Shown here: positions 43,701 to 46,700 of the stretch, piece by piece
Layout of the letters: each line of letters starts with the position of its first letter
Numbering within the stretch: the first letter of the stretch is position 1
Source of the DNA: Octopus sinensis
Taxonomy: Eukaryota
Length of the DNA: 64,000 nt
Assembly (NCBI RefSeq): GCF_006345805.1
Contig: NC_043009.1
Location: 19,158,001-19,222,000, forward strand
Reading direction: 5' to 3'
The notes under the pieces: model-generated
The model's database searches: none
Told to the model about the DNA's origin: nothing
The model's input: only the letters and a program-made list of their open reading frames with translations
Position numbers and translations under genes: made by a program

Positions 43701-46700
43701 CGCCATAGCCACCAGTACGATGAAGACTGCTTTGCCTTCCCGGTGTTCCTCGTAGACGCCCAGATTCTGCCCGAGAATGTCGTCGTACCTCCCCTCCGCT
43801 AATCCTCTATAGAACGCCTTTGTATAGTTGAAGTCGCGAAAGTTTGGTCCCGACGGCAGAGTTGCTTGAGAGCAAGACGGCACTCGCAGTTCCATTCGCC
43901 AAGCCTCGGTCTCTGTTTGATCCACGACTGCATTTCGACCAAAGGGACGAGCTGCGGGAAAGCGCGCTGTACAAACGGCGCCCACACCTGTTCACCGTCG
44001 CCTATGAAGCGCCGGAGATTTCGAAGTCTCAGCGCATGTCTGCGCATCATCAAGCACGGATTGCCTAGCCCTCCATTTAGCGGGTCTTGACAGCAAATGG
44101 ATTGCCTAAACATCGGAACGCTTCCCTTCCACAAAAAGTGGAAGAGTATGCGTTCCAGTTTGGTGATGGTAGGGTCGGGACAAGACGCGACGCTCAAGAT
44201 AGACAGACAGATAGATAGATAGACAGATAGATAGATAGACAGACAGACAGACAGACAGATAAGCGCAGGCGTGGCTGTGTGGTAAGAAGCTTGCTTCCCA
44301 ACCACATGGTTCCAGGTTCAGTCCCACTGCGTGGTATCTTGGACAAGTGTCTTCTACTATAGCCCTGGGTAAACCAAAGCCTTGTGGGTGGATTTGGTAG
44401 ATGAAAACTGAAAGAAGCCCGTCGTATATATGTATATATATATATATATATATATATATATATATATAAGAAATGATTAAGATTCAGTTGAATTAGGTAC
44501 TTAAGTTGAGGCACCAAAATTATAATGGAGTATCCTGTATGTTGACTTCTATAATTACTCTAGCATTGTCGGTTCCTATAGCCAGTAATTTTTTTATATC
44601 TAATTTCTTTTTCGCTAATTCAATGTTTAAGGCATCTACAATGCCATCTGCATCACGTTTCTAAAGATATCATAATCAGACATGTATGTACAACTTTTTT
44701 GTGAGTGTCACTATAATATATGAAAACAATTTTTAACAACTTGTTTATCGATATATCATTGGATTCATTTAATAGCAGGCTAAATTTTCTATCTCCTATA
44801 TCAGAAATGAAATCAAATCTCCATCAAAATTTACACATTTTCTATGAGGCAACTTCACTTTGGACATAATATCATTCACTATCAGACATATAATTCTTAC
44901 ATAATTCTATTAAGTGATCACACCTATCAAATGATGAGTGGCAACGAATAAACATTGCTAAATTTGCTTCAAGCATAGATGTCTTATCCTTTTTGGTTTT
45001 AATAAATTATGGACGCACGTTTTTGGATTAGAATCATAAGATTCATTTCCTTCATCAAAATAATATTTCGATAAATAAATCTGGAAATGCTAAGAAGACT
45101 TACTCCTTATATTTCTGACCAAGCGTCATCAGAACATATAAAAACTAATCAGCATATCCACATTTATATAGACGAGTGAATGGATATGCTGATTAGCTTT
45201 TATATGTTCTGATGACGCTTGGTCAGAAATATAAGGAGTAAGTCTTCTTAGCATTTCCAGATTTATTTATCGGAATATTATGTTGATGAAGGAAATGAAT
45301 CTTATGATTGTAATTCAGAAACGTGCGTCCATAATTAATCGAAGACTGTTTGATTTCATTATTTTTCTTCTTTTTTGCCATGTGTGAGTTACAAATATTG
45401 TTGTCTGTGGAGACATATTTGTGTAGAAAAAGGAAATAGTAGTTCTTTGGCTGCTATTTCTAAGATTTTCGGTATGTGGTCAAGCAACTTGTTGCAAAAC
45501 CTTATTGTTATAATTTATATATATATATATGTTCAGACCTTCACATGGTTTTTAGGAATGTCTAATTGCGAATATATTTTGGGAAATGAATGTGTTTTAC
45601 ATCAACACAGCACAGCTGCAATTTATTACGAGCAATTTTTCAGCAACAAGTTTTAATATTCAAATATAATGACAATCCTCTCAGAGAATTATCTTTACAA
45701 TTTATAAATCTCCTCAAACTAGGTCTAACTAAAATCTATCTGTGTCACTCATGGATTAATAGTCGATACACATCTTTGGGGTTGTGACTCAACAAACTAA
45801 AAAGAAGAAAATTGTTTAAGTTGCAATATTAGCAACATCAAAGGTGGCGAGCTGGCAGAATCGTTAGCACGCCGGGCGAAATGCGTAGCCAAATTTCGTC
45901 TGCCATTACGTTCTGATTTCAAATTCCGTCGAGGTCGACTTTGCCTTTCATCCTTTCGGGGTCGATCTAATCGGCTGCCCCGCTCGCTAAAAAGTTCGAG
46001 CCTTTTGCCAAGAGTAGAAAAGAATGTTAGCAACGTCAACTTTGCTAAAAGAGCATTTCTTTTTAATTAGCATTTCTTTTTAATTAGCATTTCTTTTTAA
46101 TTAGCATTTCTTTTTAATTAGCATTTCTTTTTAATTAGCATTTCTTTTTAATTAGCATTTCTTTTTAATTAGCATTTCTTTTTAATTAGCACGGTGCCCT
46201 CTGCTTCTGTGGAAACAGTTATGACAAATATGGTGCTGCTGCTGAAGACCTGTGTTATTCAAGCTGTCCACGCAACAAAGAAGATTTCTGTGGAGGTTAT
46301 CTAACAAATTCTGTTTACAAAGCAGGTAATTTTTTTTTTATTACTTTTGGTCAAATTATTTAATAACTGTCTATTTATTGCCATAATAATATTGTGGCAT
46401 GGGCAGCTTTGAATGAAACAGATTCATGTTAGTTGATTTAAGAAATCCTTTTATCACTAGTTGTAAGCATTTTTAAAGAACTATTATTATTCGTAATGGA
46501 GTAGCGGATGAAGAGTAATTTCCCAATATTTTGAATTGAAAATGTTTTGTGTGTTTTACAAAGCATGGTATTATTTAAAGGCAATTGGCTACAACAATTT
46601 CGGTTGCCTTTAATAGTAATGGGAAGAAATTTGAACATTATTAAGAATAATGTCACACAAAGAATGGCCGCTGTTTGTGCTGCTATGAGAAAAGTATGCG

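Follow-up and report, generated by a model that had tools for sequence, protein, structure and literature searches.

Among the described systems that come closest to the array reported here are the mirages of amphioxus, tandem repeats that lie across exon-intron boundaries. According to PMC3087553, regular splicing as assayed by RT-PCR is undisturbed, the repeats are unstable in length, and the mechanism by which they originate is called unclear. Units of the Adh3 mirage measure 10-72 bp, and the BflGb6 mirage consists of the 3' end of an intron and the start of the exon, with 6 and 3 units (PMC3087553). The 37-bp VNTR in IVS7 of human F7 reiterates identical splice sites (5-9) whose pseudo-sites are described as functional but silent; for the human F7, LMNB2, and PDGF repeats the authentic, exon-proximal donor alone is reported to be used, and for IFI6 (6-16) and CBS intron 13 the nearest pseudo-sites are used too (PMC1557585). 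The 25-bp VNTR in human ABCA7 intron 18 is also on the donor side and is reported with 12-427 units (PMC5954066). The insertion CBS 844ins68 makes an alternative splice site with mostly wild-type mRNA (PMC1334203), and in the account of splicing-regulating tandem repeats (spl-TRs), one repeat acts by lengthening the branch-to-AG distance, and TNA-containing repeats restore predicted splicing (PMC10078293). Nothing decisive came from PMC2812944, PMC3265369, or PMC1326234. Neither a cephalopod case nor a report on the gene treated below was found in the main texts of the open-licence literature.

The array lies in a window of 64,000 nt from Octopus sinensis (NC_043009.1, positions 19,158,001 to 19,222,000 of the forward strand); unprefixed coordinates refer to this window, and all features are on its plus strand. 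A sequence scan of 46054-46189 gave eight exact copies of a 17-bp unit, with starts at 46054 + 17n, and TRF gave a period-17 match at 46052-46191 (8.2 copies, 100%). The two methods thus agree on the eight perfect units ending at the acceptor that a preliminary description had claimed, and because the period-17 identity reaches 46191, the array overlaps the exon by 2 nt. No other perfect array with a period of 10-60 and at least 3 copies is present in the window. The last unit is the working 3' splice site, with its AG ending at 46189, and the seven added units (46054-46172), which are missing in the one-unit duplicates described below, supply decoy AGs at 46070, 46087, 46104, 46121, 46138, 46155, and 46172. 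Ten of the 17 bases of the unit are T, there is no GT, and units 2-8 share an identical context from -34 to +2. From the branch-like A of each TTAAT motif it is 4 nt to the AG of its own unit and 21 nt to the G that ends the AG of the following unit (the A being at position -22), matching the spacing of about 22 nt given earlier. Judged by motif and spacing, the predicted branch A for AG 46189 is 46168 in the TTAAT of unit 7 (46165-46169). The likely ancestral branch motif is the CTAAA at 46045-46049 (A 46048), which is 22 nt before the AG of the first unit and is retained in the one-unit duplicates. At the ancestral site, AGs are found 3 and 5 nt behind this likely branch A, and the array units share this geometry, with an AG 4 nt behind TTAAT.

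Like the amphioxus mirages of Adh3 and of the globins BflGb6 and BflGb9, the octopus array is a boundary-spanning head-to-tail repeat, here with minimal overlap, and its extra copies are intronic (PMC3087553). Its 17-bp unit, within the size range of Adh3, comes from the gene's own single boundary. The array probably works like the mirages and, on the features examined, belongs with them. It differs in having only 2 exonic nt, in a unit length close to the branch-to-AG distance, in a visible one-unit ancestor, and in occurring in a mollusc. The unit, without GT, also offers no pseudo-exon or intron-gain route, in contrast to the amphioxus mirages. CBS 844ins68, which duplicates the intron 7 acceptor, has two copies of 68 bp with coding sequence, whereas the octopus has eight of 17 bp. 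The octopus units are 100% identical, compared with 81-100% reported for BflGb6 (PMC3087553). The F7, IFI6, CBS, LMNB2, and PDGF repeats all repeat the donor, whereas in the octopus array it is the acceptor that recurs, along with a pyrimidine tract and a branch motif; those repeats are described as proven polymorphic and minigene-tested (PMC1557585), while the octopus array is known from an assembly. ABCA7, with a splice site in each unit and a frameshift to a PTC when the next unit is used, is the closest model for a rheostat, but its length is reported to affect skipping of the next exon, whereas how often the repeated site is used does not depend on it (PMC5954066). The TNA result in PMC10078293, as given there, would fit the octopus units, each of which has a branch motif of its own.

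The host gene was mapped over 24169-60781 using tblastn, an exon chain, and Pfam. A chain of 13 exons with AG/GT ends, including donor 35892 and acceptor 46190, rebuilds residues 1-500 of the 505-residue RefSeq protein P0003. Pfam assigned four stretches of P0003 to WSC (PF01822, E 8.8e-69), with PAN_1 above the cut-off too, and the gene layout from Pfam and an upstream exon located by tblastn (~24169-24395) is PAN, PAN, a Thr-rich linker, and four WSC domains. Each WSC domain is encoded by two exons, and one domain is separated from the next by a 21-nt micro-exon. The exon chain places the N-half of WSC2, with its phase-0 donor 35892, at 35759-35892, where a contig of run X11 has its loose end (35861-35890). 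The 136-nt exon behind the array, 46190-46325, is the C-half of WSC2, as shown by RefSeq P0003, Pfam PF01822, and RNA contigs of runs X11 and X12. The exon chain and the RNA contigs then give a 21-nt micro-exon at 47347-47367, the WSC3 N-half exon at 52113-52246, and the WSC3 C-half exon at 52997-53132, whose phase-0 acceptor makes it a possible in-frame skip target. Among longer proteins, the sole match to exon 46190-46325 is a WSC protein of Octopus bimaculoides (P0001), the cluster of which has 4 members, including two RefSeq proteins labelled O. sinensis. A protein search with P0003 returned 24 matches, and the octopus ones belong to the P0001 cluster only. WSC is described as a putative carbohydrate-binding domain (PMC5336659), and the N-terminus of P0001 and P0002 resembles a signal peptide by eye; the product is likely a secreted sugar-binding protein, judging from sequence. 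A relation to glycerotoxin was considered and rejected, with nothing in common beyond the WSC domain name.

Translation from each AG showed that only the last one yields the full-length protein. Use of AG 46172 shifts the frame and leads to a stop at 46304, and the AGs from 46053 to 46155 all share one reading with a premature stop. These outcomes, the identity of the exon as the C-half of WSC2, and the positions of donor 35892, acceptor 46189|46190, and phase-0 acceptor 52997, the latter three checked by the exon chain and RNA contigs, are as the preliminary description had them. The phase-compatible skip to the WSC3 C-half that it proposed is indeed in frame (35892 to 52997 drops 136 + 21 + 134 = 291 nt), but its layout had omitted the 21-nt micro-exon 47347-47367 before the WSC3 N-half.

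Three further copies of the intron end and exon were found in the same genome, two on contig C9720 and one on C10183. They span window positions 45.5-51.7 kb at 88-94% identity and contain no other WSC exon. Across tens of kb, the identity between C9720 and C10183 is 99.7-99.9%, and the copies may therefore represent a single locus that entered the assembly more than once. All three have a single acceptor unit with AGCAT on each flank, the motif being present on both sides because the exon of the duplicates begins with CAT. Since three older duplicates have one unit, the one-unit state is likely ancestral. Mismatches between the window and the duplicates were counted at 13 of 158 aligned positions upstream and 29 of 609 downstream; at 3-5% divergence, the probability of zero changes in 119 nt is 0.002-0.027. 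The units are identical despite diverged flanks, which means that the expansion is young or that the units were homogenised. Judging from these sequences, the array likely grew recently, when replication slipped from one short AGCA(T) direct repeat to the other. An origin of the array as a mobile or dispersed element was rejected, the 19-nt pattern occurring 12 times in 2.7 Gb (8 at the array, 3 in the duplicates, and 1 elsewhere).

Upstream of the array, at 45841-46034, is a high-copy interspersed repeat (103 matches in 599.8 kb) that is older than the expansion and that we take to be SINE-like. It ends at about 46025-46034. The SINE end that had been noted before is thus 20-28 bp upstream of the array and not about 30 bp. 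The suggestion that it disturbed the branch region is weakened, because the one-unit duplicates keep the repeat end in place together with an intact CTAAA 22 nt before the AG. The repeat was also rejected as the trigger of expansion, its end being common to the one-unit duplicates.

Acceptor use was examined over 45300-53300, which leaves the donor outside, in four of the 24 sequencing runs listed: X1 and X2 (DNA or unknown) and X11 and X12 (guessed to be RNA, and two of the seven guessed-RNA runs that hold part of the stretch). None of the listed runs containing the stretch is recorded as RNA; the RNA status of X11 is a guess that its spliced contig supports. In X11, one contig of 2,419 nt with a depth of 189 enters at 46188, and its loose end maps to 35861-35890, which means that 35892 is joined to 46190. 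The contig continues unbranched through the 47347 micro-exon, 52113-52246, and 52997-53132. In the bin 46101-46367, the main contig and one intronic contig of depth 2.7 account for 27,812 + 22 of about 27,821 depth-letters. These two contigs explain the whole depth of the bin, leaving no array-derived contig there, and no other contig of X11 was found on the array in 46101-46187. A skip to 52997 was not found among the contig rows listed. The claim that the decoys compete with the last AG and act as a rheostat thus gains no support from X11, in which the unbranched contig from 35892 to 46190 fills essentially all of the bin depth. The animal of X11 may carry one unit, in which case its contig says nothing on competition; rare forms also go missing in assembled contigs, and NMD would lower the amount of any decoy product. 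Sole use of the last AG is thus supported by one of the two RNA runs. The main contig of X12 starts at 46203, with about 4,500 depth-letters of the bin outside it and with most of the 1027 loose ends and 136 joints falling outside the rows listed; this start, 13 nt inside the exon, implies a branch in the assembly graph near 46202 or 46233.

Acceptor 46190 is also the one in RefSeq P0003, where a gene predictor would favour the frame-keeping AG regardless, and the same junction is present in O. bimaculoides P0001. No array-derived peptide was found in the 4 members of the P0001 cluster (a protein labelled 'isoform X1' falls outside the cluster), and the two-unit pattern had 0 matches in metagenome contigs, which is uninformative. 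RNA structure over the array was nothing special (z 0.39), and masking of the decoys by structure was rejected on this value.

The unit count was also compared with contigs and depth in X1 and X2, both of which are short-read contig sets. The array is not displayed in any listed contig row of either run. Depth in the array bin of X1 was 181, compared with 91-109 in the next two bins, a difference within noise, and in X2 it moved in the opposite direction (47 versus 106-132). One versus eight units is a difference known between paralogs only. At 46271, the assembly reads C (Arg), in disagreement with the G (Gly) found in contigs of all four runs, in the duplicates, and in O. bimaculoides; the C may be an assembly error or a private allele, and the DNA contigs at this position may be derived from a paralog. 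For comparison, 60 stretches of 10 kb were sampled at round positions of 23 contigs (599,800 bases in all), and both the exact scan and TRF detected a single comparable array among them. If the genome is assumed to have 150,000-250,000 acceptors, each with a target of 20 bp, chance would make about 5-8 of them (0.1-46, Poisson interval) the end of such an array, so that a case like this one is rare but to be expected. As a repeat the array is beyond chance, but its coincidence with an acceptor is not, given the size of the genome.

The array is probably a mirage-type minisatellite in which the last, exon-proximal AG is still used and the seven upstream copies are silent or nearly so. A single ancestral acceptor unit would have been multiplied recently via slippage at the AGCA(T) repeats. 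In the 10.3-kb intron, the exon would be defined across itself from its own enhancers and donor, and U2AF and U2 would be set on the nearest register, with branch A 46168 and AG 46189. An AG 4 nt behind a branch point is too close for use, and the one 4 nt behind the chosen branch would be skipped, as at the ancestral site. Exon sequence made of the U-rich units would be poor, NMD would clear transcripts that leak to 46172 or farther upstream, and the array would be near-neutral under selection. If scanning begins from whichever branch point has been selected, the upstream AGs should not be favoured by it, because every unit offers a branch point; the choice would then lie in which branch/AG register assembles. 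Against silence stand the use of the nearest pseudo-sites in IFI6 (6-16) and CBS intron 13 (PMC1557585), the one-unit retention in ABCA7 (PMC5954066), and the shortness of a 17-nt spacing.

It is unlikely that the decoys are leaky and work as a copy-number dial, with 46172, a farther AG, or skipping being used such that the degraded or truncated share varies with unit number. The identical -34 to +2 context of units 2-8, the branch-like motif at -22 of each, and the stop behind every decoy would suit such a dial, as would the nearest pseudo-sites used in IFI6 and CBS (PMC1557585) and, in ABCA7, one-unit retention with length-dependent skipping of the next exon (PMC5954066). Against it, the X11 contig is unbranched with no array-derived contig beside it, variation in unit number at 46054-46189 was not seen, one-unit retention in ABCA7 is described as constant across VNTR sizes (PMC5954066), and mirages are reported as silent (PMC3087553). 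More doubtful still is a reading in which the 17-nt unit, being close to the branch-to-AG distance, sets up eight overlapping and mutually exclusive registers, with a polymorphic unit number setting the share that goes to NMD. That the eight units are an assembly artefact, the count being inflated at a true locus with one or few units, is improbable. The perfect identity of the units, the one-unit state of every other copy in the genome, the disagreement of the assembly with contigs of all four runs at 46271, the lack of any listed contig row directly showing the array, and the low X2 depth in the array bin all point that way. However, the unit contains a natural slippage seed, there is no N gap nearby, and the X1 depth is raised in the direction expected of a multi-unit array, if within noise. 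Assemblers also usually collapse short tandem arrays rather than create them. Least probable, by a little, is that the array is a damaging allele: ancestral branch 46048 would feed AG 46070, the 8-unit allele would be hypomorphic or null, and normal mRNA would come from one-unit alleles or animals. AG 46070 does retain the entire ancestral upstream context, the array is young, a shortened gene duplicate without the 46190 exon suggests that broken copies are tolerated, and models of 3'-site scanning as given in PMC1557585 are in line with it. The coding exons are intact, however, the duplicated acceptors of CBS 844ins68 are reported to leave mostly wild-type mRNA (PMC1334203), and growth to 8 units in several rounds would be easier under neutrality.

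If the array is a tolerated mirage, it is a cephalopod, acceptor-side case in which the unit is very short, the ancestor with one unit is known, and the seed for slippage can be seen, and it bears on how mirages arise. It would also be a tidy substrate for minigenes, as the acceptor counterpart of F7 IVS7. Greater weight would follow only if decoy use scaled with unit number. A dial, if true, would give a secreted WSC lectin-like protein a natural acceptor-side control and would provide a ladder measuring the upstream reach of exon definition in an invertebrate.

Several minor observations were made on the gene and its copies. The orphan exon copies lie at C9720:18557-18733, C9720:78466-78627, and C10183:47607-47783, include the next micro-exon, and have an in-frame GCT expansion within the exon (12 or 17 Ala versus 3 at the window); within C9720, a stretch of about 30 kb recurs at 99.9% identity, which may reflect redundant assembly. 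The three 21-nt micro-exons of the window gene (34960-34980, 47347-47367, and 56219-56239) encode the linkers between WSC domains, and two of them are present in RNA contigs. The WSC1 C-half exon (34268-34406) is 139 nt, and the duplicate and O. bimaculoides are one codon shorter (YVTLS versus YALS). Long open frames at 39344-41458, 20251-23120, and 53745-55100, inside and upstream of the gene, are presumably remnants of retrotransposon reverse transcriptase/endonuclease. The gene has a duplicate some 277 kb upstream (C13:18880001-18920665) and on C10804 that is 97-99.5% identical to it and is without window positions 35885-56382 (20.5 kb), so that the donor, the 46190 exon, and WSC3 are gone. 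The join has a short GCTG microhomology, and the duplicate matches the shortened RefSeq model P0002.
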